A stretch of 64,000 bases of DNA from NCBI GenBank assembly GCA_900540885.1, contig UQHJ01000001.1:9734-73733 (forward strand), read 5' to 3'. This DNA comes from an uncultured Prevotella sp. (GTDB lineage Bacteria; Bacteroidota; Bacteroidia; Bacteroidales; Bacteroidaceae). Below are positions 10,420 through 49,865 of this stretch, one piece after another. Made by a program: the position numbers and the translations under genes. A model generated the notes under the pieces. The model saw only the letters and a program-made list of their open reading frames with translations, had not been told where the DNA came from and made no database searches. Every line of letters starts with the position of its first letter. Positions within the stretch are counted from its first letter, which is position 1.

Positions 10420-10986
10420 ATGTCGAAGATTATTATATTTTCAGCTCCTTCGGGGAGTGGAAAGAGTACTATTATAAACTATTTGATGCAGCAGGGGTTG
10501 AACTTGCACTTCTCTGTATCGGCCACCAGTCGTCCCCCGCGTGGTGCAGAACAGAATGGCGTGGAGTATTACTTCCTTACGCCAGAAGACTTTAAGCAAC
10601 GTATCGCGCAAGGTGAGTTTTTGGAATACGAAGAGGTATACAAAGACCGCTTTTACGGAACGTTGAAGTCGCAAGTAGACGCGCAACTCGCAAAGGGAGA
10701 AAACGTAGTGTGCGATGTAGACGTGTTAGGCGGGCAGAATATAAAGAAACATTACGGCCAACGAGCCTTGAGCATCTTTATTCAGCCACCTTCAATCGAA
10801 GCCTTGCGCCAACGCTTAGAAGGACGCGGTACGGATTCGCCAGAGGTGATTAACGACCGCATTGCTCGTGCGGAGTTTGAACTCTCGTTTGCCGATAAGT
10901 TTGACCACGCAGTAGTGAATGATGACTTGCAACAGGCACAAGCAGAAGCGTTAGCACTCATTCAAAACTTCTTAAAGGACGAATGA
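10420..10986 (+). CDS. gmk: guanylate kinase
   Basis: P-loop FSAPSGSGKST. TSRPPR(G)E..GVEYYF motif. Confidence 0.9.
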   Translation: MSKIIIFSAPSGSGKSTIINYLMQQGLNLHFSVSATSRPPRGAEQNGVEYYFLTPEDFKQRIAQGEFLEYEEVYKDRFYGTLKSQVDAQLAKGENVVCDVDVLGGQNIKKHYGQRALSIFIQPPSIEALRQRLEGRGTDSPEVINDRIARAEFELSFADKFDHAVVNDDLQQAQAEALALIQNFLKDE

Positions 10987-11570
10987 ATAAAAGGGTAGCT
11001 CTATTTGGTGGCTCGTTCAATCCGATTCATAACGGACATATCGCTTTAGCTGAAGCCGTGCTCGCTGCGCGATTGGCCGATGAGGTGTGGCTGATGGTTT
11101 CACCGCAAAATCCACTGAAGCAACAAGCAGACTTGCTTGCAGAAACCACTCGCTTGCAGTTGGCTCGAAAGGCCTTGGCGGGAAGAGACCAGATAAAGGT
11201 GAGCGACTTTGAATTTCACCTGCCGCGTCCGTCGTATACTTGGAATACGCTGCAAGCACTGCATGAGGCATACCCCGATGTGACGTTTAGCTTATTAATA
11301 GGAGGCGATAATTGGCGATGCTTTCATAAGTGGGCACACTATGCAGAGATTTTAGCCCACTATTCTATTATAGTCTATCCGCGTGCAGAGAGTGAAGTAG
11401 ATGAGCAACAGTTGCCAGCTAACGTGACGTTGCTGCATGTGCCGCTTTTCCCTTTTAGTTCGACCGACGTTCGCAATAAAGTTAGATGTGGTGAGAGCAT
11501 TAAATCATACGTGCCAAAGATTGTGTGTGATGATATAAATAAGGCTTATACGTGCAACGAAAGCGTGTGA
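10983..11570 (+). CDS. nadD: nicotinate-nucleotide adenylyltransferase
   Basis: GGSFNPIHNGH nucleotidyltransferase motif. Overlaps the gmk stop. Confidence 0.9.
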   Translation: MNKRVALFGGSFNPIHNGHIALAEAVLAARLADEVWLMVSPQNPLKQQADLLAETTRLQLARKALAGRDQIKVSDFEFHLPRPSYTWNTLQALHEAYPDVTFSLLIGGDNWRCFHKWAHYAEILAHYSIIVYPRAESEVDEQQLPANVTLLHVPLFPFSSTDVRNKVRCGESIKSYVPKIVCDDINKAYTCNESV

Positions 11571-11605
11571 GTTTTACGCTTCAAAATGAAATAAATTGCG
11601 CAAAA

Positions 11606-11645
11606 CTTTTGTATTTCAATAAATTGTAGTACTTTTGCACCGCAA
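11606..11645 (+). promoter_or_regulatory. candidate Bacteroidetes sigma-A promoter for rpsF-rpsR-rplI
   Basis: -33 TTTG (11608-11611), 18-nt spacer, -7 TACTTTTG (11630-11637). About 45 bp upstream of the rpsF ATG. Confidence 0.45.
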
Positions 11646-11683
11646 TTTTGCAAAGAAAACCCTATTAATTCATTAAAATCATT

Positions 11684-12028
11684 ATGATGAATCAGTACGA
11701 GACCGTTTTCATTATGACTCCCGTTTTGTCTGACCAACAGATGAAGGAAACGGTCGAAAAGTTCAAAGGTATTCTCACCGACGCTGGCGCTGAGATTATC
11801 AATGAAGAGGAGTGGGGCCTCAAGACGATGGCTTATCCCATTCAGAAAAAGTCCACTGGCTTCTACGAATTCATCGAGTTCAACGCTGCTCCTGAAGTAG
11901 TAGCTAAGCTCGAAGTTGCTTATCGTCGCGATGAGCGCGTAATTCGCTACCTTACAGTGAAGAACGAAAAGTACGCAGCTGAATATGCAGCAAAGCGTCG
12001 TAACAAGTTTAACAAGAAGGAGGACTAA
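11684..12028 (+). CDS. rpsF: 30S ribosomal protein S6
   Basis: [17 protein letters not shown]… typical S6. Confidence 0.9.
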
Positions 12029-12032
12029 TAAA

Positions 12033-12302
12033 ATGGCACAAGCACAATCTGAAATTCGTTATTTGACTCCCCCCACAGTGGACGTCAAGAAGAAAAAGTA
12101 TTGCCGTTTCAAGAAGAGCGGTATTAAGTATATTGACTACAAGGATCCTGAATTCTTGAAGAAGTTCTTGAACGAACAAGGTAAGATCCTTCCTCGTCGC
12201 ATCACCGGTACTTCATTGAAGTATCAGCGTCGTGTAGCTCAAGCCGTTAAGCGTGCTCGCCACTTGGCTCTTCTTCCTTTCGTAACCGATTTGATGAAAT
12301 AA
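12033..12302 (+). CDS. rpsR: 30S ribosomal protein S18
   Basis: [14 protein letters not shown]…[15 protein letters not shown]…. The ORF-track start at 11985 is an upstream in-frame extension. Confidence 0.9.
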
Positions 12303-12323
12303 TAACAGAGGAGGTAATAAGAT

Positions 12324-12773
12324 ATGGAAATCATTTTGAAAGAAAACGTTATTGGTCTGGGTTATAAGGACGATATCGTAACTGTAAAGGACGGCTACGG
12401 CCGCAACTACCTTATTCCTACTGGCAAGGCTGTTATTGCATCAGAATCTGCTAAGAAGGTACTCGCTGAAAACATGAAGCAACGTGCTCACAAGTTGGCT
12501 AAGATTAAGGCTGACGCTGAAGCACTTGGCCAGAAGCTTTCTGCTATCGAACCTATTAAGATCGCTACTAAGGTTAGCTCAACTGGTGCTATCTATGGTT
12601 CTGTTAACGCTCTTCACATCGCTGAAGCTCTCTCTAAGCTTGGCTTCGATGTAGATCGTAAGATCATCACTGTAAAGGACGTTAAGGAAGTTGGCACTTA
12701 TACTGCTACTGTTCACCTCCACAAGGAAGTTTCAGTTGAAATTCCTTTCGAGGTTGTAGCTGAAGAAGCTTAA
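12324..12773 (+). CDS. rplI: 50S ribosomal protein L9
   Basis: MEIILKENVIGLGYKDDIVTVKDGYGRNYLIP…. Confidence 0.9.
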   Translation: MEIILKENVIGLGYKDDIVTVKDGYGRNYLIPTGKAVIASESAKKVLAENMKQRAHKLAKIKADAEALGQKLSAIEPIKIATKVSSTGAIYGSVNALHIAEALSKLGFDVDRKIITVKDVKEVGTYTATVHLHKEVSVEIPFEVVAEEA

Positions 12774-12807
12774 TCTATTCTTCACTTTAGGTGAATTAAT
12801 CAACCCT

Positions 12808-12867
12808 ATAACAAGTAACACTTTTTGCTTACATATATAAGTAAAGGTGTTACTTGTTATTTTTTTG
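12808..12867 (+). terminator. rho-independent terminator after rplI
   Basis: 14-bp stem ataacaagtaacac / gtgttacttgttat followed by T7. Confidence 0.7.
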
Positions 12868-12881
12868 TATTGTAAGAGCTT

Positions 12882-13637
12882 ATGCGTTATTTTATATATC
12901 TTTCGTATGACGGCACGGCCTATCATGGTTGGCAGGTGCAACCCAATGCGGTGAGCGTTCAGCAAAAGTTGAATGAAAGTTTGGCAAAACTGCTTCGGGG
13001 ACGAAACTCTGATGTGACCGGAGCAGGACGTACTGATGCGGGCGTGCATGCGCATATGATGGTGGCACATTTTGATATTGACGAATTGATAGACGGAACT
13101 TGGCTGACTGATAAACTTAATCGTATACTTCCTCCTGACATAGCAGTAAGTCGGGTGGTAAGGGTAAAGGACGAAGCTCATGCACGCTTTGATGCTCAAT
13201 CGCGCACGTATCATTATTGGATATATACGCGTAAGGATCCCTTTAATCGTCAGTATGCTACGCGTATCACGTTCCCACTCGATTTTGAAAAAATGAATGA
13301 GGCGGCTCATTATCTCACCACCGTGAGCGACTTTACCAGTTTCTCGAAGTTGCATACCGATGTGAAAACGAACATTTGCAGCGTAAAGCATGCTGAATGG
13401 ACCAGAGTGGGAGATGATTTGTGGCAGTTTGAGATTACGGCCGATCGCTTCTTGCGCAATATGGTGCGAGCCGTTGTGGGCACTTTGATAGAAGTAGGAA
13501 GAGGACGCTTGTCGTTGGCCGACTTTAAGCGTGTTGTTGAACTGAAAGATCGTTGTGCGGCAGGTGACTCTATGCCCGGTAATGCGCTGTCGTTGGTTGA
13601 TATTCAGTACAGTAATGACTTATTCGAAGTAGAGTAG
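12882..13637 (+). CDS. truA: tRNA pseudouridine(38-40) synthase TruA
   Basis: [14 protein letters not shown]…[11 protein letters not shown] catalytic Asp motif. Confidence 0.9.
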
Positions 13638-13640
13638 CGT

Positions 13641-14543
13641 ATGTGGGTAATCTTAGCTTTCCTTTCAGCTTGTCTATTGGGCTTTTATGATGTCTTTAAG
13701 AAGAAGTCGTTAGCCGATAATGCGGTGCTACCAGTCTTGATGATAAATACAGTGGTATGTGCGCTCTTCTTTCTTCCCTTAATTGTTGCTTCCGTTTGTG
13801 GTTGGAGTGGGGTAGTACCTGTAGGAGGGTGGCATGAACATTCTTTGGTATTAATCAAAGCTATTATCGTTCTTTCATCATGGGTGTGTGGCTACTATGC
13901 GATGAAGCATTTGCCTTTAACAATAGTTGGCCCGATTAATGCTACGCGTCCTGTAATGACATTGGTCGGTGCACTGCTTATTTATGGAGAACAACTAAAT
14001 CCGTGGCAGTGGGCAGGTGTACTTTTAGCGATATTTTCTTTCTTCTTACTAAGTCGTAGTGGAAAGAAAGAGGGTATACGATTTGCGCACAATCGTTGGA
14101 TTATACTTTTGGTCGTGGCTGCAGTGTTAGGTGCTGCGAGCGGACTCTATGATAAGTTCTTAATGGCGCCGCTTTCAGAGGGTGGCGCAGGGCTTAATCG
14201 CTACTTCGTACAAGGCTGGTATAATCTTTACCAAGCCATTATGATGACTATTGTTATGCTATTCATTTGGTTGCCTCGTCGCAAGGAGGGTACACCATTC
14301 CGGTGGCGTTGGAGTATATTGTTCATCTCCATTTTCTTAACTGCAGCAGACATGGCCTACTTCTATGCTTTGTCATGTCCGGGTGCAATGATTGCCGTCG
14401 TATCAATGGTACGCCGCGGTAGTGTTATCGTTTCATTTCTCTTTGGTGCAATGGTGTTTCATGAAAAGAACCTACGTTCTAAAGCTATTGACTTGTTATT
14501 CGTATTATTAGGTATGCTCTGCTTGTTTATTGGTAGTAAGTAG
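13641..14543 (+). CDS. EamA/DMT-family transporter
   Basis: 300-aa protein with ~10 TM helices, two EamA-like halves. Confidence 0.7.
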   Translation: MWVILAFLSACLLGFYDVFKKKSLADNAVLPVLMINTVVCALFFLPLIVASVCGWSGVVPVGGWHEHSLVLIKAIIVLSSWVCGYYAMKHLPLTIVGPINATRPVMTLVGALLIYGEQLNPWQWAGVLLAIFSFFLLSRSGKKEGIRFAHNRWIILLVVAAVLGAASGLYDKFLMAPLSEGGAGLNRYFVQGWYNLYQAIMMTIVMLFIWLPRRKEGTPFRWRWSILFISIFLTAADMAYFYALSCPGAMIAVVSMVRRGSVIVSFLFGAMVFHEKNLRSKAIDLLFVLLGMLCLFIGSK

Positions 14544-14728
14544 GTATGGCGGAATCCTTAAGACTTATGAGGCGACAAGATGCTGCATAACATTATTAAA
14601 ACAACCTGTTAAATCAATTGATTATCAACTGTATACACAGAGAATATCACCCCACTATGGCTCTTTATAGCATAGGATGGGAAACTTTAGATATAAAGTA
14701 ATACCAAACATTATATTCGAAGACAATA

Positions 14729-14763
14729 ATGGGGTATTCTAATTTATTCTTAGAATACCCCAT
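14729..14763. terminator. bidirectional hairpin between convergent genes
   Basis: atggggtattcta…tagaataccccat 13-bp stem. Confidence 0.5.
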
Positions 14764-14809
14764 ATATAATGTGTTAATGTATTATCGTATAATACCCAAA
14801 AACATTTTG

Positions 14810-15277
14810 TTATACGCCTTTTCCATTTCTTAATTGAGTTAATAGTATTGTTGAAGTTTTATAAGCTCCACCAAAAGTTAGTTCGTAATTTATGCTATTA
14901 CTCGTCTTGTTTTCTTTAAGCGTTATTCGCAGAGAATGGGGAGTTGTCGATAGTATTTCGATCTTACCCCAATTCTCTTCACAAATTGTATAAGGTGTAG
15001 GACGTTTCAAGTCATTATCAGTAACGCTATAATAGTAATTCCCTACCTTTATTTGTGACAAGAATCCATTCTTTGCATTTTTCCCAATAGATGTAATGGT
15101 TACAATACCTCCTGCAGAACCAATTTCTGCATAATAAGATGTACCACTTGGCTTTGATAGAGTAATGCCAGTAGTTTTAAACTTAATGTTTTCAAACTTC
15201 TCTTCTTCATTGCTACAAGCTACAAAACTTAAGCAACATAGAATGGTTGTTACCACGAGATATGCACAGTACTTCAT
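14810..15277 (-). CDS. hypothetical lipoprotein
   Basis: Signal plus lipobox (SFVACSNE). 155 aa. Confidence 0.55.
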   Translation of the reverse strand: MKYCAYLVVTTILCCLSFVACSNEEEKFENIKFKTTGITLSKPSGTSYYAEIGSAGGIVTITSIGKNAKNGFLSQIKVGNYYYSVTDNDLKRPTPYTICEENWGKIEILSTTPHSLRITLKENKTSNSINYELTFGGAYKTSTILLTQLRNGKGV

Positions 15278-15411
15278 TTTGTAATTATTGAGTATTCAAG
15301 ATTATATTTAAAATTAGGTGAAGATCCTATTTGTGAAACAGAGCGTGTTTGTGCTCTATTTCGAATAGAAAGCACTTCTGCCATTTTTATAGATTTTGCT
15401 GCACATCAGTA

Positions 15412-15837
15412 TTACTGCATGCGCCATTGTTTTCCGTCGAATATCATGGGGAGCATGACTTCTTCTTTGCTACCGTCCTTATAATTTACGTTGAGAAAGA
15501 CGTTGGCCATGCGGCCATTGTTGTGCAATTCGGTGCGTAGCACTTGTACGTTACTAACACCTTGCTTCTCGTCATTTATTTGCTTTTGATGTTGGCGCAA
15601 CATTACGATAATGCGCTCCTTATAGGCATCTGTTGTCCCGTCACATGAGTGCATGGCTTTGACGTAGTCGTCAAACAGTCCGTTGGCTTGCATCTTGTAG
15701 CAAGCGATAGCCATTGTGTCAGCTTCTTCGCTGGTAGGAAGTTGGGCGGCATTGTTCGTGCGATTGCTGCAACTTGTTGTAAAGCAGAGGGCTATGAAGA
15801 GTGATAGGAAGGGTGCAAATAAATGATTGTTTTGCAT
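15412..15837 (-). CDS. hypothetical lipoprotein
   Basis: Signal plus lipobox (CFTTSCSN). 141 aa. Immediately downstream of der. Confidence 0.55.
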   Translation of the reverse strand: MQNNHLFAPFLSLFIALCFTTSCSNRTNNAAQLPTSEEADTMAIACYKMQANGLFDDYVKAMHSCDGTTDAYKERIIVMLRQHQKQINDEKQGVSNVQVLRTELHNNGRMANVFLNVNYKDGSKEEVMLPMIFDGKQWRMQ

Positions 15838-15841
15838 GTGA

Positions 15842-17158
15842 TTACTTCTGTCTGATAAAGATGTTAATTGGTGTACCAGTAAAGTTCCAACGCTCGCGAA
15901 TCTTGTTCTCCAAGAATCGGCGGTAGGGCTCCTTTACGTATTGTGGTAGGTTGGCATAGAACACGAATGAGGGAACTTGCGTGTTGGGCAACTGTGCACA
16001 ATATTTGATTTTGATGTACTTACCCTTGATTGAGGGTGGTGGATATGCTTCAATGAGTGGCAACATCTCTTCGTTGAGTTTAGAGGTAGAGATGCGACGC
16101 TTGCGAGCTACGTACACTTCTTTGGCCGTTTCGAGCACCTTGAATATGCGTTGCTTGGTAAGTGCAGAAGCAAAGATAATGGGGAAGTCTACGAATGGCG
16201 CCATGCGGTTGCGAATGGCTTCCTCGAAGTGGCGGATGGCCGTGTTTGACTTGTCTTCAACTAAGTCCCACTTATTCACGACAACAACGATGCTCTTGCA
16301 GTTCTTCTGAATGATTTGAACGATGTTGAGGTCTTGACTCTCAATACCGCGTGTGGCATCAATCATCAAGATACAAACGTCAGAGTTTTCGATAGAGCGA
16401 ATGGCACGCATAACAGAGTAGAACTCTAAGTCTTCTGTTACCTTATTCTTACGGCGAATACCTGCGGTATCAACCAAATAGAAGTCAAAGCCAAATTTGG
16501 TGTAACGCGTAAGAATGCTATCGCGTGTGGTACCAGCAATATTGGTCACAATGTTGCGGTCTTCACCAAGGAAAGCATTGATGATGCTGCTCTTACCTGC
16601 ATTAGGACGGCCTACTACGCTGAAGCGTGGAATGTCGTCTTCAGCTTCATTGCCGTTATCGTCCTTACCCAACTTCTCGATGATGAGGTCGAGGAGGTCG
16701 CCCGTTCCGCTACCTGTGATAGCAGAAATGCAGAAGGGATCGCCAAGGCCTAATTTGTAAAATTCGGCAGCGGTATAACGATCTTCGTTGTTGTCGGTTT
16801 TGTTGGCGCACAAGATAACGGGCATATTGGTGCGACGCAGAATTGATGCTACTTCAGCGTCTAAGTCGGTGATTCCGTTCTTTATGTCAACGACGAATAG
16901 GATAACGTCGGCTTCTTCGGTGGCAAGGGTTACTTGCTTACGGATTTCACCTTCGAATACGTCGTCAGAGTTTACTACCCAACCGCCTGTATCAACGATT
17001 GAAAATTCTTGTTTACCCCATTCGCATTTGCCATATTGACGGTCGCGTGTGGTGCCGGCTTCATCGCTGACAATGGCCTGGCGTGTTCCCGTAAGGCGGT
17101 TGAACAGGGTTGATTTGCCGACATTGGGTCGGCCAACTATGGCTACTAATTTTGACAC
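15842..17158 (-). CDS. der: ribosome-biogenesis GTPase Der (EngA)
   Basis: Two tandem GTPase domains (GRPNVGKST / GRPNAGKSS) plus a KH-like C-terminus. Confidence 0.9.
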
Positions 17159-17245
17159 TTTGTAATTCGGTATTATGTGTTATGAAATGGGTTCTTATTG
17201 GTAGGTTAGAACTACACGTCTTATTGTCAGTTATGCGGTGAAGCT

Positions 17246-18127
17246 TTAATCTAACTTATAGCCGTAAGCTTCAAGGCGTTTGGTGTTGCTGCGCCAGTCT
17301 TTGTCGACTTTGACAAAAATTTCAAGGTAGATACTTTTGCCAAAGAACTTTTCAAGTGTCTTGCGAGCTTCAGATGAAACCTTTTTAAGTGCAATACCAC
17401 GGTGACCAATAATGATGCCCTTTTGGCTATCGCGCTCAACGTAGATGACTGCGTTGATGTGAATGTGTTTGTCGTCTTCTTTAAACTGTTCAACGACCAC
17501 TTCTACGGCGTAGGGTATCTCTTTGTCGTAGTAGAGAAGTATCTTTTCGCGGATAATCTCTGTCACAAAGAAGCGTGCAGGCTTATCGGTCCATTGGTCT
17601 TTGTCGAAGTAGGGGGGAGAGTCGGGGAGTAACTCCTTGATGCGGCTCAGCACGTTGTCAACGTTAAACTTTACCTTTGCAGAGATAGGGAAAATCTCCG
17701 CTTTGGGAAGGCTCTCGTGCCACAACTGCACTAATTTCTCTAAGTCCTTTTGGTTAGAAATGTCGATTTTGTTGATCAACACCAAAACGGGAACATTCAT
17801 CTTTTTTACCTTTTCAAGAAAGTCGCTATTCTTGTCTGGTGTCTCAACGACGTCGGTGACATAGAGTAGTACATCAGCGTCTTGAAGGGCTGATACTGAA
17901 AAGGCTAACATCTCTTCTTGTAACTTATAGTTTGGCTTGAGCACTCCTGGGGTGTCAGAGAACACGATTTGAGCATCGTCAGAGTTGATAATGCCCATAA
18001 TGCGGTGACGAGTAGTCTGTGCCTTAAAGGTGGCAATAGAAATGCGTTCGCCCATAAGTAGGTTCATGAGGGTTGATTTACCAACGTTGGGATTGCCTAC
18101 TATGTTTACAAAGCCTGCTTTATGCAT
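17246..18127 (-). CDS. era: GTPase Era
   Basis: [17 protein letters not shown]1, DTPG, NKID. C-terminal KH domain. Start chosen at MHKAGF…; the ORF-track start at 18184 is an upstream extension. Confidence 0.85.
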   Translation of the reverse strand: MHKAGFVNIVGNPNVGKSTLMNLLMGERISIATFKAQTTRHRIMGIINSDDAQIVFSDTPGVLKPNYKLQEEMLAFSVSALQDADVLLYVTDVVETPDKNSDFLEKVKKMNVPVLVLINKIDISNQKDLEKLVQLWHESLPKAEIFPISAKVKFNVDNVLSRIKELLPDSPPYFDKDQWTDKPARFFVTEIIREKILLYYDKEIPYAVEVVVEQFKEDDKHIHINAVIYVERDSQKGIIIGHRGIALKKVSSEARKTLEKFFGKSIYLEIFVKVDKDWRSNTKRLEAYGYKLD

Positions 18128-18268
18128 ATATGATGTATGATAGTTTGTTACAAGAGCAACTTTGCGTAGTGGAGTATTGCTCAAGAAAAGATTTTAAAGG
18201 TTTATAACCTAAGGCATGCCTCGGTTATAAACCTTCAAAAGTTGATGATGAATGTGTTCTTTCTTATT

Positions 18269-19273
18269 TTATTTCTTAGGATCGTATGCCCACTTTAAGT
18301 AGGCTGCGCCCCAAGTAAAGCCTGCACCGAAGGCACAAAGTATAAGGTTGTCGCCCTTCTTAAGTTGCTTCTCGTAGTCCCACAATGCTAAGGGGAGTGT
18401 GCCTGCTGAGGTGTTGCCATAGCGCTGAATGTTGAGCATTACTTTATCCATAGGCAACTCTAAGCGATGAGCCACGGCTTCGATAATGCGTACGTTGGCT
18501 TGATGAGGTACAACCCAAGCAATGTTGTCGTGTGTAAGGTTGTTACGCTCGGCTATTTGTGCGCAAGCGTCACTCATATTGGTTACGGCAAACTTAAACA
18601 CGGTGCGTCCCTCTTGGTGGAGGTAGTGCATGCGGTGGTCGATGGTGAAGTAAGAAGGACTGCAAACGCTACCGCCAGCTTTCATGCAGAGGAAGGGAAG
18701 TCCCTTACCGTCAGTGCGCAAGTAGCTGTCTTGCCAGCCTAATCCTTCTTCTGTAGAAGGTTCAACCAAAACGGCTGCTGCACCGTCACCAAAAATGGGG
18801 CATGTAGCACGGTCGGTGTAGTCAACAATTGACGACATTTTATCAGCACCGCATACAACAATCTTCTTGTAACGTCCGCTTTGAATCATTCCAGACGCTG
18901 CGTCCATGGCGAAAAGGAAGCCACAGCATGCAGCTTGCATGTCGATGGCAAAGGCATTCTTCATACCTAAACGGCCAATAACAATGCTTGAGGTTGAGGG
19001 AAAATGGTAGTCGGGGGTAGTAGTGGCAACGATTACGCAGTCTACTTCTTGAGGGTCGGTGCCTGTCTTTTCAAGCAATTGCTTTACGGCTTTTCTTGCC
19101 ATGTAGCTTGTGCCGAGTCCTTCTTCATTTAAGATGCGGCGTTCTTTAATGCCGATACGTGTCATGATCCACTCATCGTTCGTGTCGACCATGCGTGATA
19201 GCTCGTCGTTATTAAGTACGTATTCAGGAACGTATCCACCTACGCCCGTAATGACTGCATTTATCTTTTCCAT
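18269..19273 (-). CDS. fabH: 3-oxoacyl-ACP synthase III (FabH)
   Basis: [16 protein letters not shown]…. Active-site Cys in AACCGF. C-terminal GAGFTWGA. Confidence 0.9.
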
Positions 19274-19574
19274 AGGAATGTGTATTAACAGAAAGGCCTT
19301 TTCTTCTTTTTTATGCAACGATAATGGTACTATAATTTTTTGAAAAGTGATGACACAATAGTCCGCTTATTAGTTGTTTGCCTACGTTTAGTGGCTTTTT
19401 CAAGAAAGACCCTTGTTTTTATGATAAAAGAAATAGCTTAAGAGTTGTATAGCGTTACGCTTATCAAGCGCCTGAATAATAAGGCAGGCGGTCGAGTAAA
19501 CGCAAAGTGCTTTAATTTACAACTCTTAAGCTACAGAATTTTTGTCAAAGCTTACGAGAAAGCTTTGGTTGTGC

Positions 19575-19760
19575 TTACTCAGCCACTTCTTTTACGATGG
19601 CGAGTTTACCACGATAGTAGCCACAAGTGGGGCATACTGTGTGGTAGATGTGCCAACCACCACAATTAGGGCATACTGCTAATGTAGGAGCAACTGCCTT
19701 GTCGTGAGTTCTACGCTTAAGAGTTCTCGTCTTTGATTGTCTTCTTTTAGGATGTGCCAT
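19575..19760 (-). CDS. rpmF: 50S ribosomal protein L32
   Basis: MAHPKRRQSKTRTLKRRTH…. CxxC…CxxC zinc ribbon. Confidence 0.9.
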   Translation of the reverse strand: MAHPKRRQSKTRTLKRRTHDKAVAPTLAVCPNCGGWHIYHTVCPTCGYYRGKLAIVKEVAE

Positions 19761-19812
19761 TTTCTTTTTTTATTTTTAGAATGTTTTTACTTGTTTTCTT
19801 TGACCGCAGTGA

Positions 19813-20301
19813 TTATTCGTCTTCTTCGTCATCGAAGCTATTATCTTCATCGTCAGCAGTCATGATGTAGCTAACCATATCTTTGTTGCACTCACCTTCA
19901 GCGTGAACACGTTGCATGGGCAATGCCGTTTCAATTATTTCATAAAGTTGCCATGACAAGTCATAGCACGGATTGTTTGCTTCAAGATAAAGCATCTCAG
20001 GAGCATCGCAATCTTCTTGCTCAGCGTCTTTAATCTTTATATTGTCTGTGGCCTCTACTTCAATAGAAAGAGGGTCAAGACAACGATCGCAAGCTACGAT
20101 TACGTTACCTTTTACTTTAATTTGAACATTGAAAATGTTTCCAGCCGATGCGCGAACAAATATTTCGGCGTGAACATCTCCGCCACTTATTTCTTCTTGC
20201 TCCAGGTCAGCGAAGAAGCGATCAGTTAGCTCAACGTCGAGGCGTTTAGCTGCTTCGGCAGCATGCGCCAAATTGATATTTAGGAGGTTTTCACTTTGCA
20301 T
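19813..20301 (-). CDS. yceD: YceD/DUF177 family protein (23S rRNA accumulation protein)
   Basis: Acidic 162-aa protein with CDRC…C motifs, directly upstream of rpmF (conserved yceD-rpmF arrangement). Confidence 0.75.
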   Translation of the reverse strand: MQSENLLNINLAHAAEAAKRLDVELTDRFFADLEQEEISGGDVHAEIFVRASAGNIFNVQIKVKGNVIVACDRCLDPLSIEVEATDNIKIKDAEQEDCDAPEMLYLEANNPCYDLSWQLYEIIETALPMQRVHAEGECNKDMVSYIMTADDEDNSFDDEEDE

Positions 20302-20715
20302 AGCGGCTGCAAAGGTAGTAATTTTTTATCGTTTGCAATGTTTTGCCTGATGTTTTTTACTGATTTTCTTATTAAAAACGGCACTCGATGGCCTTGCTTT
20401 TGTCACTTTGTAGTTTTGTAGGGCCCTGAAGTAGAAAAGAGTATGATGTTAAGATATTGGTTGATAGTTGCATATTTTGTCAATAATTATCACCATAGTT
20501 TGAATTTTTCAATGAGCCGTGGTGTAGCGATTGTTATTTGAGCATTGAGTCCTGTAATTGGATTGCTCAATTGTAGCCCCATTTTTCCCTATTTTCTTTA
20601 TTAAGAGATACTTCCATGTAATGCTTGTGCGATTCGTTTAAATCATGCGCAAACATGCAGGACCACAATCCATCACTTCGTTTTGGTTATATAGAGGAAA
20701 TTTTTCCATGCTGAT

Positions 20716-23469
20716 TTATTCTTTTCTAGGTGATTTGCTAAAATGATAGACGAGGCTTAGCATAAAATAACGGGGTACTACATTGTGCCATGTTTCTGTA
20801 CGGCCTTGGGCATTGAGTGTTCGCACGATGCTACGACGTTGTGCCAATATGTCATGACCTGAAAGTTTGAGTGACAGGGCTTTGCTCTTCAACATTCGTT
20901 TTGCCACGGCCATGTTCCATATCCACTCATGGCTATTCATAGAATGATCGGCATAACCCGAACGAACATAGTAAGTCAAGTCGGTGTCTATTACCATGTT
21001 CCAAGGCAAACTCCATTGGTTGGTAAAGGTGTACAGATGGTTGATGCTGTTAATGGTTTGGAAACCTGTGAGCTTGCTCGTAGCGTGCTGCCAATCAACG
21101 GCACTTTTAAGAGTAGCATTAAATAGTTTGCAGTGGTAAGCCAAAGCCACGTTCCCTTGCATGAACCAATTCTTAACCTCGCTCTTCACACTCGTCTGCA
21201 TAAGACTGGTTTGCTGAAAGTCTACACTGTTTTGAAAAGTTTCAGTTGCCGACACGTCAAATGTCCACTTTTGCTTTTTGTCCAAGCTACAAGCATAACC
21301 TACTGTTACATGTGTTTGCCAATTACCATTGATGTTTTGCGCCATTGATGTTGTTACGCCCGTTTCCGCATCGTAGTATCGAGCTTGCCCAACGGCATTT
21401 TGCTGAGCTGAATAGCCCCATTCTGCATTCAGGTTTTGTGCATGCTTCGTTTTGTTTAGGGTGTAGCCCAAAGTGGCATTATAGATGTTGGTGGGCTTTA
21501 AGGTGGTGTTACCTTTGGTGATGAATAGCGGATTGCTATCGTCAGTAACATCAAGCAACAAATTCATTTGAGGGGCAGTATGAGCTATCGAACCGCTCAT
21601 TTTTATATTTTTGAAACTAAGCGAGAAGGAAGGTTGCAACCATTGATAATGTTTCACTATGTGTCGTTGCTGATCTTTCATGCGCAAATCATCAATAACG
21701 TTGCGCGTGAAGGCCATGGGGAGTGCGGCATAGAAGTTCAAGCCATCCTTCATCAACAAATAGCGAAGCTCCGCTGTGTGCATGGTCTGGGATGTCGTTG
21801 TTTTATAAGTATTTGCCCAATCTGTTGCCAAAGCAAGTGAATCTGTGGTTGAAGGCAACTGTCCCAAATGCTTTCTGTCGGGCAATGCCCAATCGCCACC
21901 TAAGCGGTCAAAGCGGTAGTATTTTCTGTTACCCTGTTGATGCCTATGGTCAATGTTGTAGGTAGCATATAATTTATGAAACATGTTGCCATGCTCCTTT
22001 TCAATTAAGGCATAGCCTATGCTACCAAGCAATTGATAGTTCGACTGCTTATTGTGATCGTACCGATTGCGAAAGTCTGAAGTAGGGTCTGCACCTTGCG
22101 TTAGCAAACTATATAGTGAAGCCATCTTATCAGTAGCAGTATTGTAGTTGGCTGCAAAATTCACACCCAAATTTTTGTCATTCGGTAATTTCACTGTGGC
22201 ATTGAGCATAGCAGAATAGTTCAAACTATGGATCTTGTCGTGATTCAAATCTGTATAGTCGTTTACCATGCCTTCAACTACATTCGTCCATTCATTAGGA
22301 AGAGGTTGATTGCCTTGAACGGATTGTTGCGTGCCATTGCTTGATGTTGATGCATAAGTCAAATATTGGTCAAGGTGAATGTAAGCAAACGAGGTGGGAA
22401 TGCTCAACATACCATTCCAATTAAAGTTGTAATTATGGCTTTTATTTAATGACATACTTTTGCCGAATATGTTGCCAGACTCAAAGAAACTTACGAAATT
22501 ACCTCGACTTTCATTAATCTCTTTATCATGCGAAGCCTCTAAAGTAGTTGTAAAGCGAATGGGACGTTCGCTGTTCTTTCCTCCATAAAAAGAAGCAAAG
22601 ATTCCGCCTTTTTGCAGCGTGTTCTCTCCCATCATAGCATCTTCGTTCTCCCACTTGCCGTCAGTTCCAGCGCGTTGGTTGCTATTGGTATTGTTGGCAT
22701 TCCCATAAAAGCCCACACGTGCTCTGTCTGAAAAGTACGTTCCAAACACTCGGCCCAAGTATTTATTTTGCGTACCTCCACCAGCTTCAGCATTGGCTAT
22801 CCAGCCTTGGTGATATTCTTTCTTCAAAGTTACGTCAATCACCCATGGATCGTCAGCGTGTGGTTTGTTGTCCTTGCGCGTAAGGTAAGCATTGTCGGGC
22901 GCTTTCTGATAGGACTTTACGTTCTTCACCATATAGGCGGGCAGGTTTTCAAGGGCAACATTGGCGTCGCCATTGAAGAAGTCTTTGCCGTCAATCAGCA
23001 GGTTACTAACGCGGTTACCATTGACCGTAATGACACCACCTGCATTCAGCTTTACGCCAGGCAAACGTGATATGAGTTGGTCGAGCATAGAGCCTTCTGC
23101 CAACTCAAAAGCATCGGCATTGTACACTATGGTGTCGCCCTTCATCACCATCATCACCTTTGTGGCTGTTACGGTGGCTTCGTGCAGCGTGCGAGGGGCA
23201 CGTTTCAGCATGATGGGATCGGGGGCAATGTCATCTGCAGCATCCACTTTTACCAGTTGCGAAAGATAGCCTTTTTTTTCACACTGAATGTAATAGTAGG
23301 GACTGCTTCCCTCTATTTGAGAAGCATAGTAGTACTTCTTTCTATCACCCATATTGATTGTAATCATCTGACATGAATCGACAAAAGCTGAATCCTTGTC
23401 AAGAATGGTCACACTCGCTCCTTGAAGCGATATTTTGGTTGCTGCATCCTTCACCGTTATGGTGAACAT
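20716..23469 (-). CDS. outer-membrane beta-barrel protein, OMP_b-brl_3 / TonB-dependent-receptor-like with N-terminal carboxypeptidase-regulatory-like domain; reading frame lacks signal peptide because of upstream frameshift
   Basis: 917 aa. N-terminal ITVKDAATKISLQGASVTILD CarbopepD_reg-like. ATVTATKVMMVMKGDTIVYNADAF plug-like motif. C-terminal aromatic-rich barrel ending …PRYFMLSLVYHFSK. Paralog of 26708-29632. Confidence 0.75.
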   Translation of the reverse strand: MFTITVKDAATKISLQGASVTILDKDSAFVDSCQMITINMGDRKKYYYASQIEGSSPYYYIQCEKKGYLSQLVKVDAADDIAPDPIMLKRAPRTLHEATVTATKVMMVMKGDTIVYNADAFELAEGSMLDQLISRLPGVKLNAGGVITVNGNRVSNLLIDGKDFFNGDANVALENLPAYMVKNVKSYQKAPDNAYLTRKDNKPHADDPWVIDVTLKKEYHQGWIANAEAGGGTQNKYLGRVFGTYFSDRARVGFYGNANNTNSNQRAGTDGKWENEDAMMGENTLQKGGIFASFYGGKNSERPIRFTTTLEASHDKEINESRGNFVSFFESGNIFGKSMSLNKSHNYNFNWNGMLSIPTSFAYIHLDQYLTYASTSSNGTQQSVQGNQPLPNEWTNVVEGMVNDYTDLNHDKIHSLNYSAMLNATVKLPNDKNLGVNFAANYNTATDKMASLYSLLTQGADPTSDFRNRYDHNKQSNYQLLGSIGYALIEKEHGNMFHKLYATYNIDHRHQQGNRKYYRFDRLGGDWALPDRKHLGQLPSTTDSLALATDWANTYKTTTSQTMHTAELRYLLMKDGLNFYAALPMAFTRNVIDDLRMKDQQRHIVKHYQWLQPSFSLSFKNIKMSGSIAHTAPQMNLLLDVTDDSNPLFITKGNTTLKPTNIYNATLGYTLNKTKHAQNLNAEWGYSAQQNAVGQARYYDAETGVTTSMAQNINGNWQTHVTVGYACSLDKKQKWTFDVSATETFQNSVDFQQTSLMQTSVKSEVKNWFMQGNVALAYHCKLFNATLKSAVDWQHATSKLTGFQTINSINHLYTFTNQWSLPWNMVIDTDLTYYVRSGYADHSMNSHEWIWNMAVAKRMLKSKALSLKLSGHDILAQRRSIVRTLNAQGRTETWHNVVPRYFMLSLVYHFSKSPRKE

Positions 23470-23525
23470 TTGTCCGTAAGACGCGATGCTTTGAAGTGCG
23501 AATAAAAAAATATTAAGTGTCTCAT
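23470..23525 (-). other. detached signal-peptide exon of the OMP gene (frameshift in A7 tract 23504-23510)
   Basis: ATG at 23525 encodes MRHLIFF… and terminates out of frame. Adding one A to the A7 run gives MRHLIFFLFALQSIASYGQ fused in frame to MFTITVKD…. Confidence 0.6.
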
Positions 23526-23973
23526 TGCAAATTACTTATTTAAAGGAAAACTTGTTTTATCGGGATTTTTTTGCATTTGATAGCAAAGTTAAAAAAAAAG
23601 AACAAAACGTATTTGCTTACATTATTTTTTCAATGTTGTATACCATACAAAGTATAGCGATATGGATGCTCATAATATAGATTGTCAACATAATTAGTTG
23701 TATAAGGAATTTGAACTTCTATTGCTTTTTCTACTTTTGGTCTTGCAAATCAATAGGGGGGCAATTTTTATTTTAAACATCAGATGTACTAATTTGTATA
23801 CATCCAATGCATCGAATAGCGTTTGCAAAAATATAATAATGAATGCTCATGAACAAGTGATATTTTCCTATCTGTGACATTTTAATATAATGTAAACACT
23901 TGAAAATCAATGATTAATCAGTTATGTTGCATCTAAAAATACCCTTAAAATGTCACAAACTTTTTTAGATCTA

Positions 23974-24241
23974 TGTTGATTCGTGTGGGTAAACTGCAAT
24001 TTATCTGCCTAATTGGGGGACGCGCCCTCACCTGGGGGCGACGCGTCCCCGCGTCGGCATTGCCAACTTGGGGTTCGATGCCCCAAGTTGGCAATACTTA
24101 AAGTATGGATATTCATGTATTTGCATGTCAAGGCCTCGAGCCTTGACTTACAAATGCCGACGCGGGGACGCGTCGCCCCCAGGTTAGGACCCGCCCCCCA
24201 ATTAGGCAGATAAATTGCAGTTTACCCACACGAATCAACAT
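23974..24241. repeat. 268-bp compound foldback element with 46-bp perfect terminal inverted repeats (ATGTTGATTCGTGTGGGTAAACTGCAATTTATCTGCCTAATTGGGGG)
   Basis: Whole element is a near-perfect palindrome with nested inner inverted repeats and small hairpins. ORF 24013-24213 inside is spurious. Confidence 0.75.
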
Positions 24242-24317
24242 AGCCCAAACATTCTTTTAGAATTTTCCTATTTGTTATATTTTATTGTGAGTTATCACGG
24301 ATTATCTTATCTTTGCC

Positions 24318-24463
24318 TAAGATAGGCTGCGGCTCAGCAAAACGTTCAAGCAAGCTTGACGTTCTGCATTCGCCTTGCACTATCTTTGCACAAGATAGGC
24401 TGCGGCTCAGCAAAACGTTCAAGCAAGCTTGACATTTTGCATTCGCCTTGCACTATCTTTGCA
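24318..24463 (+). repeat. two tandem 73-bp units of the promoter-bearing repeat family, ending 32 bp before the TPR regulator ATG
   Basis: taagataggctgcggctcagcaaaacgttcaagcaagcttgacRtt(c/t)tgcattcgccttgcactatctttgca ×2. Core palindrome aacgttcaagcaagcttgacgtt. Confidence 0.7.
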
Positions 24464-24494
24464 TCATAAAGAAATCCGCAATCAGCATACCCCT

Positions 24495-26122
24495 ATGAAG
24501 TACAAGTTCTTTAATATTATTTTTGCTATTATCTCATTAAGTTTCCTATTATGTTGTCAATCACAAACACATAAGGAGTTGTGTAATGCTGACAATCTGC
24601 TTGAAACGAATATAGACTCTGCTCAAAGAATCGTACAGTCAATTCAACCGAGTTCATTGCATAGCTTGGCAGATAGTGCGTATTATGTGTTACTGAAAAG
24701 TATTATAATCTATAAGCGCTATGAAAAGCAACCTACTTCTACACTTGATTTCCCCGTTCAGTTTTATGAAAAGGAGGAGAACTATAGACTCTTACAAAAA
24801 GCATACTATTATCGGGGAGCTATAAATGTTGATAATAAAGGTAAAGCGGAGATTAGCGCGCTTGACTTTAAGAAAGCGGAAAACTTGAATGAAATCGTAA
24901 GAGATTCTTCTTTAATAAAGAAATTATATGGATCGATGACTAGTCTGTATTTTTCAAGCAAAAATTATCATGAACATTTAATTTACGAAAAGAAATCTTT
25001 AAAATTAGCACAACAACTGGATGACAAAGAATTGCAAGCTTGTTACTATAGTGGCATGGCTATATGCCTTAAGGCTTTAGGTTGGCTGCGCCATACGTTG
25101 ATTCATCATTGTCTTTTGTCAATTATATGCCTCAAAAGGAAAGCCAATCTGCCATCTATTGTAATAGTGGTAATTTTTTTGTCGATCATGATCTTAACAA
25201 GGCAAGTTCCTATTATCGTAAGGCATTATCTCTAAATCCCAACAATGAATTAGCAATGTTTGGAATGCTAAAAGTAGCAGTATATAAAGAAGATGAAAAG
25301 AACATTGACTACTGGGAAAGCAAGATATCTACTACCAACGATAATGAGCTAAAAGAAGAGATCTATCAGCTTTTAAAGAACGATGCGCAAAAGAAAGGCC
25401 AATTTAAAAAGGCCTATTTCTATTCAAAAAAAATAGATAGTCTCAATTTTAAACTGAAAGCAGCCATAACAACTTATAAGGTGGAGAGCGTTCAAAAATC
25501 ATATAAACATTCCGTAAACGATGAACTAATGACTAAACAAGCTCATCATAAACTCTATACAAGCCTTATAGGTTGTACCATATTGTTGATATTGACTTCA
25601 TTTATGATTGTAATGAATAAAAGAGGGAAAAATAACATTAACTCATTAGAAATAAATGTAAGCCAACTTGGTAATAAAAATAAAACAATGGAAACTTCCA
25701 TTAAGGAAAAGAATGACATCATCACTCAGCTACAACAACAAATAAAAGTGATAGAAGAATCTAACAAAGTTGAGAAAAAGGCATCAAAAAAATCTATAGA
25801 AGAAATAAAGCAGGGGTTAGCTATTTTGCTTCGTGTATTCCAAAACGAAAAAGGTGCTTTATACGACAATAAGAGCAGAAAATTATTCATTTTGTGTTAT
25901 AAAATCATAGATAAAGATTTTATATCAAAATTAGAAAATGAGGCAACACTGCAAGAACAGCTAATCTGTGTGCTTATACATAATAATTTTTCAAAAGAAC
26001 AGATTATTAATGTACTATCATTATCTGATGAAGCTTTTCGAAAACAAAAAAGTCGTACATTGAACAAGCTCAAAGATAAGGAAGGACTACAGGACGTTTG
26101 TGACATTTTAAGCATAATTTAA
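24495..26122 (+). pseudogene. frameshifted TPR-repeat sensor / LuxR-type HTH one-component regulator (lipoprotein signal, periplasmic TPR, single TM, cytoplasmic HTH)
   Basis: Two overlapping frames (24495-25235 and 25082-26122) carry one continuous TPR protein. Both frames are open over 25073-25235. Upstream frame MKYKFFNIIFAIISLSFLLCCQ… (lipobox). Downstream frame carries the TM segment LYTSLIGCTILLILTSFMIVM and C-terminal LQEQLICVLIHNNFSKEQIINVLSLSDEAFRKQKSRTLNKL (LuxR/sigma-r4-like HTH). Confidence 0.55.
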
Positions 26123-39529: not shown

Positions 39530-39850
39530 TCATGTTTCATTTTTATGTTTCAACTTATTGATTATCAATACTTTCGAAGGCTGAAACATACGACTTTTAT
39601 GTTTCATTTTTAGTTTCAATGTTTCATACTCTAAAAACACTGAGGGAGCGAAACAAAAACACTGTGGGAGCGATTTCAAAACCCAATGGGAGCGAAACAA
39701 AAACACTGAGGGAGCGTGAAAGCGCTCCCTCAGTGTTTTGAAGAATGAAACATGAAACTAAAAGTGAAACATTGAAGTCGTATGTTTCATATTTCTAAAT
39801 GACTGATATTCAATTATTTTATAACGAAAAATGAAACATGAAAGATAAAT
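39530..39850. repeat. composite foldback: flanking TGAAACAT/ATGTTTCA motif clusters in inverted orientation around four tandem 22-bp repeats (AAAACACTGAGGGAGCGAAACA) that end in a perfect 13-bp hairpin
   Basis: Tandem units at 39633-39718. Hairpin cactgagggagcg-tgaaa-gcgctccctcagtg at 39705-39739. At least 10 TGAAACA/TGTTTCA copies. Outer inverted pair gaaacatacgactt / aagtcgtatgtttc. Confidence 0.6.
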
Positions 39851-39898
39851 CAAAGGTACTGAAAACGTATGGATATATGTGAGCCAAATTGCAGTTTA

Positions 39899-49542: not shown

Positions 49543-49710
49543 AAACTGCAATTTATCTGCCTAATTGGGGGGCGGGTTTTTAACCCGCGGCAGCAGCAGG
49601 CTTGAACATCTACTTATAGTTGCTAAGCGACCATAAGCTACATGCTGCTGCCGCGGGTTAAAAACCCGCCCCCCAATTAGCCCCCCAATTAGGCAGACAA
49701 ATTGCAGTTT
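49543..49710. repeat. 168-bp foldback with the same AAACTGCAATTTATCTGCCTAATTGGGGGG termini as 23974-24241 but an unrelated palindromic core
   Basis: Core ggcgggtttttaacccgcggcagcagca…tgctgctgccgcgggttaaaaacccgcc. Right end duplicated (ccccccaattag ×2). Confidence 0.75.
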
Positions 49711-49865
49711 ATTTTTGTCATAAAAATAATAAGTCCTGTACTGTTTGCGATTAACACGAAGAGTAAATGTCCCTGACGGTGTACCTAAGGGTTTTATCTT
49801 ATAAGCAAAACAAAAACTCCTCACAAAAGAAGTATTAAATCTTTTGTGAGGAGATTTGTTTGTAT

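Follow-up and report, generated by a model that had tools for sequence, protein, structure and literature searches.

Short poly(A) tracts at the 5' end of bacterial genes are sites of high-frequency, reversible inactivation, and the closest documented analogue of the locus described here is the A7 tract in inlA of Listeria monocytogenes, for which reversible gene inactivation is the authors' interpretation, a tract mutation frequency of about 1000 times that of point mutations was measured, and at least two independent origins of the inactivation were found (Orsi, Bowen and Wiedmann 2010; PMC2831843). Here we describe a gene for a predicted outer-membrane protein (OMP) in a 64-kb stretch of an uncultured Prevotella sp., a Prevotellamassilia-like member of the human-gut Prevotellaceae (GenBank contig UQHJ01000001.1, positions 9,734 to 73,733; the whole stretch of 64,000 nucleotides is referred to as the window). 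The signal-peptide region of the OMP gene carries a run of seven T (T7; tract 1) that puts the gene out of frame (OFF), and one more T (T8) puts it in frame (ON); a run of eight A (A8; tract 2) follows further downstream. In our reading, the T7 form is a contingency-like OFF allele of a surface receptor gene that arose by slippage, is favoured by selection and may be reversible; we put the probability of this reading at roughly 0.6.

The locus resembles inlA in that a short A/T homopolymer lies in the first codons of a surface-protein gene, that a 1-base deletion leads to a tiny product, and that ON and OFF alleles are both found among natural strains. It differs from inlA, a gene of a Gram-positive pathogen, in that it belongs to a gut Bacteroidota commensal, in the protein and the habitat, in the presence of two tracts per gene, and in that the evidence comes from metagenome assemblies. 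With the contingency loci of Neisseria, Haemophilus, Campylobacter and Helicobacter (PMC11868660) it shares a 5' intragenic homopolymer, slipped-strand mispairing as the presumed mechanism, the ON/OFF variation of a surface protein, and the occurrence of expansions as well as contractions (here in tract 2). The classical loci usually have longer and strain-conserved tracts, heterogeneity within a culture and measured switching rates, whereas tract 1 has 8 nucleotides (nt), is lineage-specific, and its OFF state appears to be stable within one clone.

In gut Bacteroidales, promoter-inversion systems also turn outer-membrane proteins of the TonB-dependent type ON and OFF, but these systems use site-specific recombinases, and the change found here is a frameshift in the coding sequence. 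For Bacteroides, the systems cited in a recent phase-variation review (PMC11868660) are all driven by invertases. A literature search gave no report of outer-membrane receptors that are switched by homopolymers in Prevotella or Bacteroides, and papers on Bacteroides phages implicate TonB-dependent transporters in general terms only. The mechanism itself is textbook; the population-level support from public assemblies is unusually good.

Reading frames and signal peptide

The length of tract 1, inside the reading frame, decides whether the OMP gene is in frame: with T7 the product is a dead end of 22 amino acids (aa), with T8 a protein of 936 aa, and with T9 a peptide of 42 aa. In the window the 5' coding sequence from the native start codon is ATG AGA CAC TTA ATA TTT TTT TAT TCG, and the frame opened there translates as MRHLIFFYSHFKASRLTDKCSP. 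What remains of the gene is an open reading frame (ORF) of 917 codons that starts MFTITVKD and lacks a signal peptide. One T added to tract 1 (A7 on the plus strand) yields the 936-aa protein, which starts MRHLIFFLFALQSIASYGQ fused in frame to MFTITVKD; an identical protein, P0121, is contained in the public collection. A preliminary description of the window, made from the sequence alone, had reported the 917-aa ORF, the fusion of a signal peptide to the barrel by a single added base, and an intact paralogue with such a signal; the coordinates and frames of the ORF were reproduced, the fusion product was computed and exists publicly, and the paralogue (974 aa; N-terminus MYKILFILLMSTFFSAASAQN) was confirmed, with 23% identity to the 917-aa ORF and, like it, a match to Pfam family PF14905. 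The short frame exists and stops early as that description had it, with one small correction: the two frames overlap, the end of the short ORF lying 10 nt beyond the internal ATG at 23469. Coordinates are given in Table 1.

The repaired N-terminus consists of a positive n-region (MRH), a hydrophobic h-region (LIFFLFAL) and a polar c-region (QSIASYGQ), with residues 8-19 identical in the orthologues. The restored residues LFALQSIASYGQ match the N-termini of the 936-938-aa orthologues exactly. The agreement goes far beyond chance, and we take the restored N-terminus to be the real one. These closest homologues are 77-94% identical and have the N-terminus MKRLLFILFALQSIASYGQMF(S/T)ITVKD; one of them carries the name 'outer membrane beta-barrel protein [Prevotellamassilia timonensis]'. 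In a family alignment of 79 members, with identities down to 23%, the N-termini of 75 of the 78 aligned family members reach 15 or more residues beyond the first Met of the window's ORF, and the sequence at that place was signal-like by a crude test in 71 of them. By this test and by its conservation, the repaired N-terminus is a predicted Sec-type signal peptide, and the view is supported that the frameshift cuts an outer-membrane beta-barrel gene off from a genuine signal peptide that it had ancestrally.

A leaky T7 allele, in which slippage of RNA polymerase on A7/T7 or a -1 ribosomal slip on U7 yields a low level of the full-length MRHLIFFLFALQ... protein, is very improbable. Slippage on A/T runs is established, and a -1 shift or one extra U would restore precisely the T8 product; however, the zero-frame codons AUA UUU UUU UAU are out of register with the canonical X XXY YYZ heptamer, and the 100 nt downstream fold no better than shuffled sequences (z = -0.76), so that neither the heptamer register nor the stimulatory RNA structure of a programmed -1 ribosomal frameshift site is found. 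Furthermore, seven bases are short for efficient transcriptional slippage, and every intact relative is in frame with T8, with no sign of a programmed event.

Tract 1 alleles in public assemblies

The preliminary description had proposed a comparison of tract length in related strains; both 7-T and 8-T alleles were found in close relatives, on contigs that derive from human-gut metagenomes. The contigs that encode P0121 all have T8, i.e. L023 (ERZ27272183), L024 (ERZ1744026), L025 (ERZ28595237) and L026 (SRR3993041). One T is the sole difference between L024 and positions 10716-24123 of the window (13.4 kb), and likewise between L026 and the window over 4267 bp; L023 and L025 have a different flanking haplotype. 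The exact 917-aa product is present on at least six contigs, and T7 was found on DNA 100% identical to the window in L030 (ERZ27272161, 13.4 kb), L031 (SRR28455223, 11.9 kb) and L002 (SRR28454792, 4.3 kb). Tract 1 is a length polymorphism between otherwise identical DNA, with T7 in the window, L030, L031 and L002, and T8 in L024 and L026. Because the ON partner is otherwise identical, the split between T7 and T8 is more recent than any point mutation in the 13 kb.

A sequencing or assembly error, which had been named earlier as an alternative, has a negligible probability. Homopolymers are a classic site of such errors, and the window by itself could not exclude one, but T7 also appears in ERZ27272161, which was assembled with MEGAHIT, and in SRR28454792 and SRR28455223, separate runs assembled by Logan, and this recurrence in at least three other assemblies identical to the window excludes it. 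Also, other 8-mers are unchanged in the same contigs, and only two indels separate the window from L023 over 18 kb.

Tract 1 was found as T7 on a second, divergent allele as well (L004 from SRR22034731, ~91% identical; product P0103), with the signal sequence ...LFAIQYIASYGQ; the same 5' sequence has T8 in L015, L018 and L020. Since the L004-type and window-type sequences diverge directly 3' of the tract, a common origin of the two T7 tracts would need a crossover within 3 nt. The exact repaired version of the L004 allele is absent from the protein collection. Three homologues of 919 aa (P0099, P0100 and P0101) were considered as further T7 frameshifts and rejected; their DNA reads T8 followed by G, in frame, and the gene callers had picked an internal ATG, so that only P0103 (L004) is a true T7.

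A gene that shares this 5' coding sequence (N-terminus MRHLIFFLFAIQ...; in-frame T8 with a G behind it) occurs in a different neighbourhood in L003, L033 and L034, and a gene of this type in a different neighbourhood also in L009, L010, L014, L016, L017, L021 and L022. It is preceded by glycosyltransferase genes and a 91-aa gene and followed by a peptidase-C39 ABC exporter; homology breaks off right at the start codon, and callers chose the internal ATG (919 aa) despite the in-frame signal peptide.

Tract 2 and recurrent inactivation

Truncated homologues of 833-845 aa led to the discovery of tract 2, which lies 230 nt downstream of tract 1 and is in frame in the window. Among the sequences examined, all those with tract 2 have A8 or A7, in OMP genes ~87% or more identical to that of the window; of these 24 sequences, 22 have A8 (the window and 21 of the 23 loci fetched), and the other two, L027 and L029, have A7. 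A search with the resulting 91-aa fragment revealed A7-type ends (...CEKKAIFRNW) on at least five different N-terminal alleles and A9-type ends (...CEKKRLSFATGKSGCSR) on other alleles, and in one case A7 and A9 on one and the same allele (P0316 vs P0317). One A7 fragment (P0152, identical to WP_337363625.1 of Prevotellamassilia timonensis) is present on 210 contigs. No A7 or A9 version of tract 2 was found for the window allele in the protein collection.

Judged from these alleles, length change appears to be both bidirectional and recurrent for tract 2, and in part also for tract 1 (T7 on two alleles). Homopolymer slippage in the OMP gene is probably recurrent, since T7 is found on a second allele and -1 and +1 variants of tract 2 are found on many alleles. 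The N-terminus is absent in 19 of the 120 best homologue representatives; three of these are start-codon miscalls on in-frame T8, which leaves 16 of 120. The OMP gene is often inactivated in natural gut populations, and the two 5' homopolymers are the dominant and potentially reversible routes.

Protein family, predicted fold and allele mosaicism

With PF14905 (OMP_b-brl_3) the OMP protein scores 63.5 bits (E = 2.5e-17; cut-off 27 bits), and its homologues are precomputed as members of PF14905; a match to the Plug domain (PF07715) at residues 132-207 (E = 0.034, 15.1 bits) stays below the cut-off of 23.9 bits. Searches of NCBIfam and of PDB sequences with the OMP protein gave no match. An AlphaFold2 model was obtained with a pLDDT of 86.5 and a pTM of 0.76, and the top 50 Foldseek matches of this model in the PDB were all TonB-dependent transporters (probability 1.00; E 8e-17 to 1e-13), the best of which include PhuR, FoxA, FhuA, FecA, Cir and BtuB (E ~1e-16 to 1e-14). 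The TM-scores are low (0.25-0.46) and the sequence identity is 9-12%, which supports the fold class only. On the basis of the model, the OMP is a predicted plug-and-barrel protein like the TonB-dependent transporters (22-strand barrel class), and PF14905, the model and the N-termini of the family together point to an exported protein in need of a signal peptide.

Like FhuA, BtuB and Cir, which are among the best PDB matches, the modelled protein has a predicted plug and a large barrel; it is set apart from these by its family (PF14905), an extra N-terminal beta-sandwich domain, the distant sequence (9-12% identity) and the sub-threshold Plug match. Between the alleles P0121 and P0003, residues ~350-600 are 58-76% identical and the N- and C-terminal thirds 94-100%; this hypervariable central block suggests recombination or diversifying selection acting on an exposed part of the predicted barrel.

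Proposed mechanism and its weighing

The ancestral state of the lineage would have been T8, with ATA TTT TTT TTA as codons 5-8, from which replication slippage may have dropped one T; the direction from T8 to T7 is the presumed one. Ribosomes that start at the native ATG would then terminate after 22 codons, and any protein started from the internal ATG (23469) would lack the Sec signal and presumably fail to reach the outer membrane. The gene would be OFF because the frame of the native ATG stops early and the product of the internal ATG has no signal. The change would be a single step and reversible in principle, and the T8 form is found on otherwise identical DNA in gut metagenomes of other people.

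TonB-dependent transporters are classic receptors of phages and colicins (FhuA, BtuB, Cir), and loss of the receptor is a standard route to resistance. Selection against an exposed receptor might act preferentially, and reversibly, through the two 5' homopolymers, with phage, bacteriocin or antibody pressure as the most plausible selective agent; a hypervariable central block would be expected for an exposed region under diversifying selection. The locus would behave like a low-grade contingency locus. A stronger version, i.e. a two-switch contingency gene that slipped-strand mispairing at T8 and A8 turns ON and OFF in human hosts, at an appreciable rate and under phage, bacteriocin or antibody pressure, is possible, and we put it forward as a tentative proposal. 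The slipped-strand on/off phase variation that the preliminary description had put forward is supported in part, by the T7/T8 allele pair, the T7 on a second allele and the length change of tract 2 in both directions; rapid reversible switching would be a candidate property of the locus.

Several observations weigh against a contingency-like OFF allele. The four T7 copies of the window allele are clonal, a single haplotype without any SNP in 11.9-13.4 kb, and one mutation that then persisted would account for them; the OFF state of the window allele looks stable across samples, a uniformity that, if it tells anything, favours slow switching or sustained selection. One DNA-pattern scan of metagenomes recovered 12 OMP-gene loci, none of which had T7. 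T9 versions of tract 1 were sought as exact 42-aa peptides for three alleles, with 0 found in the collection, a lookup that is uninformative since such short overlapping ORFs are seldom called as genes. By the standards of classical contingency tracts, T8 is short. Tract 1 is confined to MRHLIFF... alleles, the commonest alleles reading MKRLLFILFALQ without the tract (in L005 as TTA CTC TTT ATA TTA TTC) or T5-A-TT-A (L012 and L013), and UMGS499 has no tract. Because other alleles have an interrupted tract or none, tract 1 is a lineage-specific acquisition, one that is not kept as a repeat. The gene is also knocked out outside the repeats, by a nonsense mutation (K44*) in L028 (about 1170) and by an A5-to-A4 frameshift at 'TLQKGG' (~residue 284) in L015 (13380-13401), which points to selection for loss in general, beyond a dedicated switch. 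Finally, a 10-bp deletion in the neighbouring lipoprotein gene (see below) hints at wider decay of, or selection against, the surface-protein cluster. These knock-outs and the neighbouring deletion would be equally compatible with plain gene decay or with selection for loss.

One-off and effectively permanent pseudogenisation, with the tract an incidental mutational weak spot and no meaningful switching, is a less likely explanation in our estimate. It would account for the single haplotype shared by the T7 copies of the window allele, for the deletion in the adjacent gene, which is also found in SRR28455316, for the loss of the gene by a nonsense codon and by the A5-to-A4 frameshift in other lineages, and for the absence of tract 1 from most alleles; it does not fit the T7 on a second, divergent allele that differs directly 3' of the tract, the -1 and +1 variants of tract 2 on many alleles, or an ON partner that is otherwise identical over 13.4 kb and so dates the change as very recent on the scale of point mutation. 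The slippage-driven, potentially reversible OFF allele remains the reading that we prefer.

If the tracts switch within hosts, gut Bacteroidales would offer a clear case of an outer-membrane receptor that varies in phase by repeat slippage, and would use this classical mechanism for surface receptors alongside their invertase systems. Such variation would be readable directly from public metagenomes, as in the case of the one OFF fragment on 210 contigs, and the PF14905 protein would be a target of strong selection in the gut and a candidate phage or bacteriocin receptor or antigen, which the mosaic central block would fit. Annotation of these genes errs both ways: T7/A7 alleles are called as 'proteins' of 917, 833 or 91 aa, and intact T8 alleles are sometimes called from an internal ATG.

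Neighbouring genes and other features of the window

The features of the OMP gene and of its surroundings are summarized in Table 1.

Table 1. Features of the OMP gene and of its surroundings in the window (positions in nt)
Feature	Position	Strand	Remarks
Native start codon ATG of the OMP gene	23523..23525	-	Opens the full reading frame in L023-L026 (T8; called product 936 aa); N-terminus matches the orthologues
Tract 1, poly-T, codons 6-8 of the signal-peptide region	23504..23510	-	T7 here (OFF); T8 is in frame (ON)
Dead-end frame, 22 codons and TAA stop	23457..23525	-	Translated from the native ATG when tract 1 is T7
Remaining 917-codon ORF, starts MFTITVKD, no signal peptide	20716..23469	-	Predicted N-terminal beta-sandwich domain, plug-like region and large beta-barrel
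Tract 2, A8 on the coding strand, codons C-E-K-K-G (TGT GAA AAA AAA GGC)	23272..23279	-	Residues ~82-86 of 936; in frame in the window
Putative promoter TAACTTTG	23584..23591	-	Fits the Bacteroidota -7 consensus TAnnTTTG; 59 nt upstream of the ATG; adjoins the T9 run 23591-23599
Paralogue, 974 aa	26708..29632		Intact signal peptide; PF14905
Lipoprotein/TPR gene	24495..26122	+	Divergent to the OMP gene; 10-bp deletion at 25079/25080
Palindrome	23948..24266		155-nt arms, 79% complementary, 9-nt loop; between OMP and lipoprotein genes
Related copy of the palindrome	49561..49711		25 kb away
Tandem copies of a 73-nt unit	24308..24471		Two and a half copies, 95% identical; just upstream of the lipoprotein gene
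A8 run	31229..31236	-	Codons 4-6 (MKNKKN) of the 187-aa gene
187-aa gene	30682..31245	-	Directly after the ECF sigma factor gene
ECF sigma factor gene	31235..31729		
Stretch of ~1.9 kb	37976..39898		GC ~0.36; no ORF longer than 79 aa

The sequence TAACTTTG may be the promoter of the OMP gene. Matches of the TAnnTTTG type number 81 in the window against 60 expected, and as the motif is only modestly enriched we infer this promoter with reserve. Non-coding homopolymers in this region differ between lineages; an A7 run in the 5' untranslated region (23566-23572) is A8 in L012, and the T9 run beside TAACTTTG is T8 in L013.

The gene divergent to the OMP gene is a ~545-aa gene with a lipoprotein-type signal peptide and tetratricopeptide (TPR) repeats, which is split into two ORFs by the 10-bp deletion relative to L023, where GGCAAGAGAG is found at this place. 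The truncated product of 246 aa is also encoded on Logan contigs from SRR28455316, and the deletion is taken as real because of this identical product. Each copy of the 73-nt unit upstream of the lipoprotein gene begins with TATCTTTG, which fits the Bacteroidota -7 promoter motif.

The palindrome between the two genes resembles a miniature inverted-repeat transposable element (MITE), and several contigs end there; in L024 the neighbourhood changes at the palindrome, with a GH97 gene upstream. A comparison of the palindrome with Rfam gave only sub-threshold matches to plant miRNA hairpin families. An invertible promoter upstream of the OMP gene was considered and rejected, since the palindrome is long, imperfect and MITE-like, and does not consist of short inverted repeats flanking a promoter.

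All homopolymers of at least 8 nt in coding regions of the window are located in a cluster at 20.7-31.3 kb (at 23272, 25426 and 31229, and the former T8 at 23504), which comprises genes for an extracytoplasmic function (ECF) sigma factor, outer-membrane proteins and lipoproteins and has a somewhat lower GC content (0.36-0.42). The A8 run behind the ECF sigma factor gene shows no difference between the window and L023. No Rfam match at the gathering threshold was obtained for the ~1.9-kb stretch at the end of Table 1. The window is otherwise an ordinary stretch of a Bacteroidota chromosome, with genes for ribosomal proteins, era/der, fabH, relA/spoT and glycogen genes.

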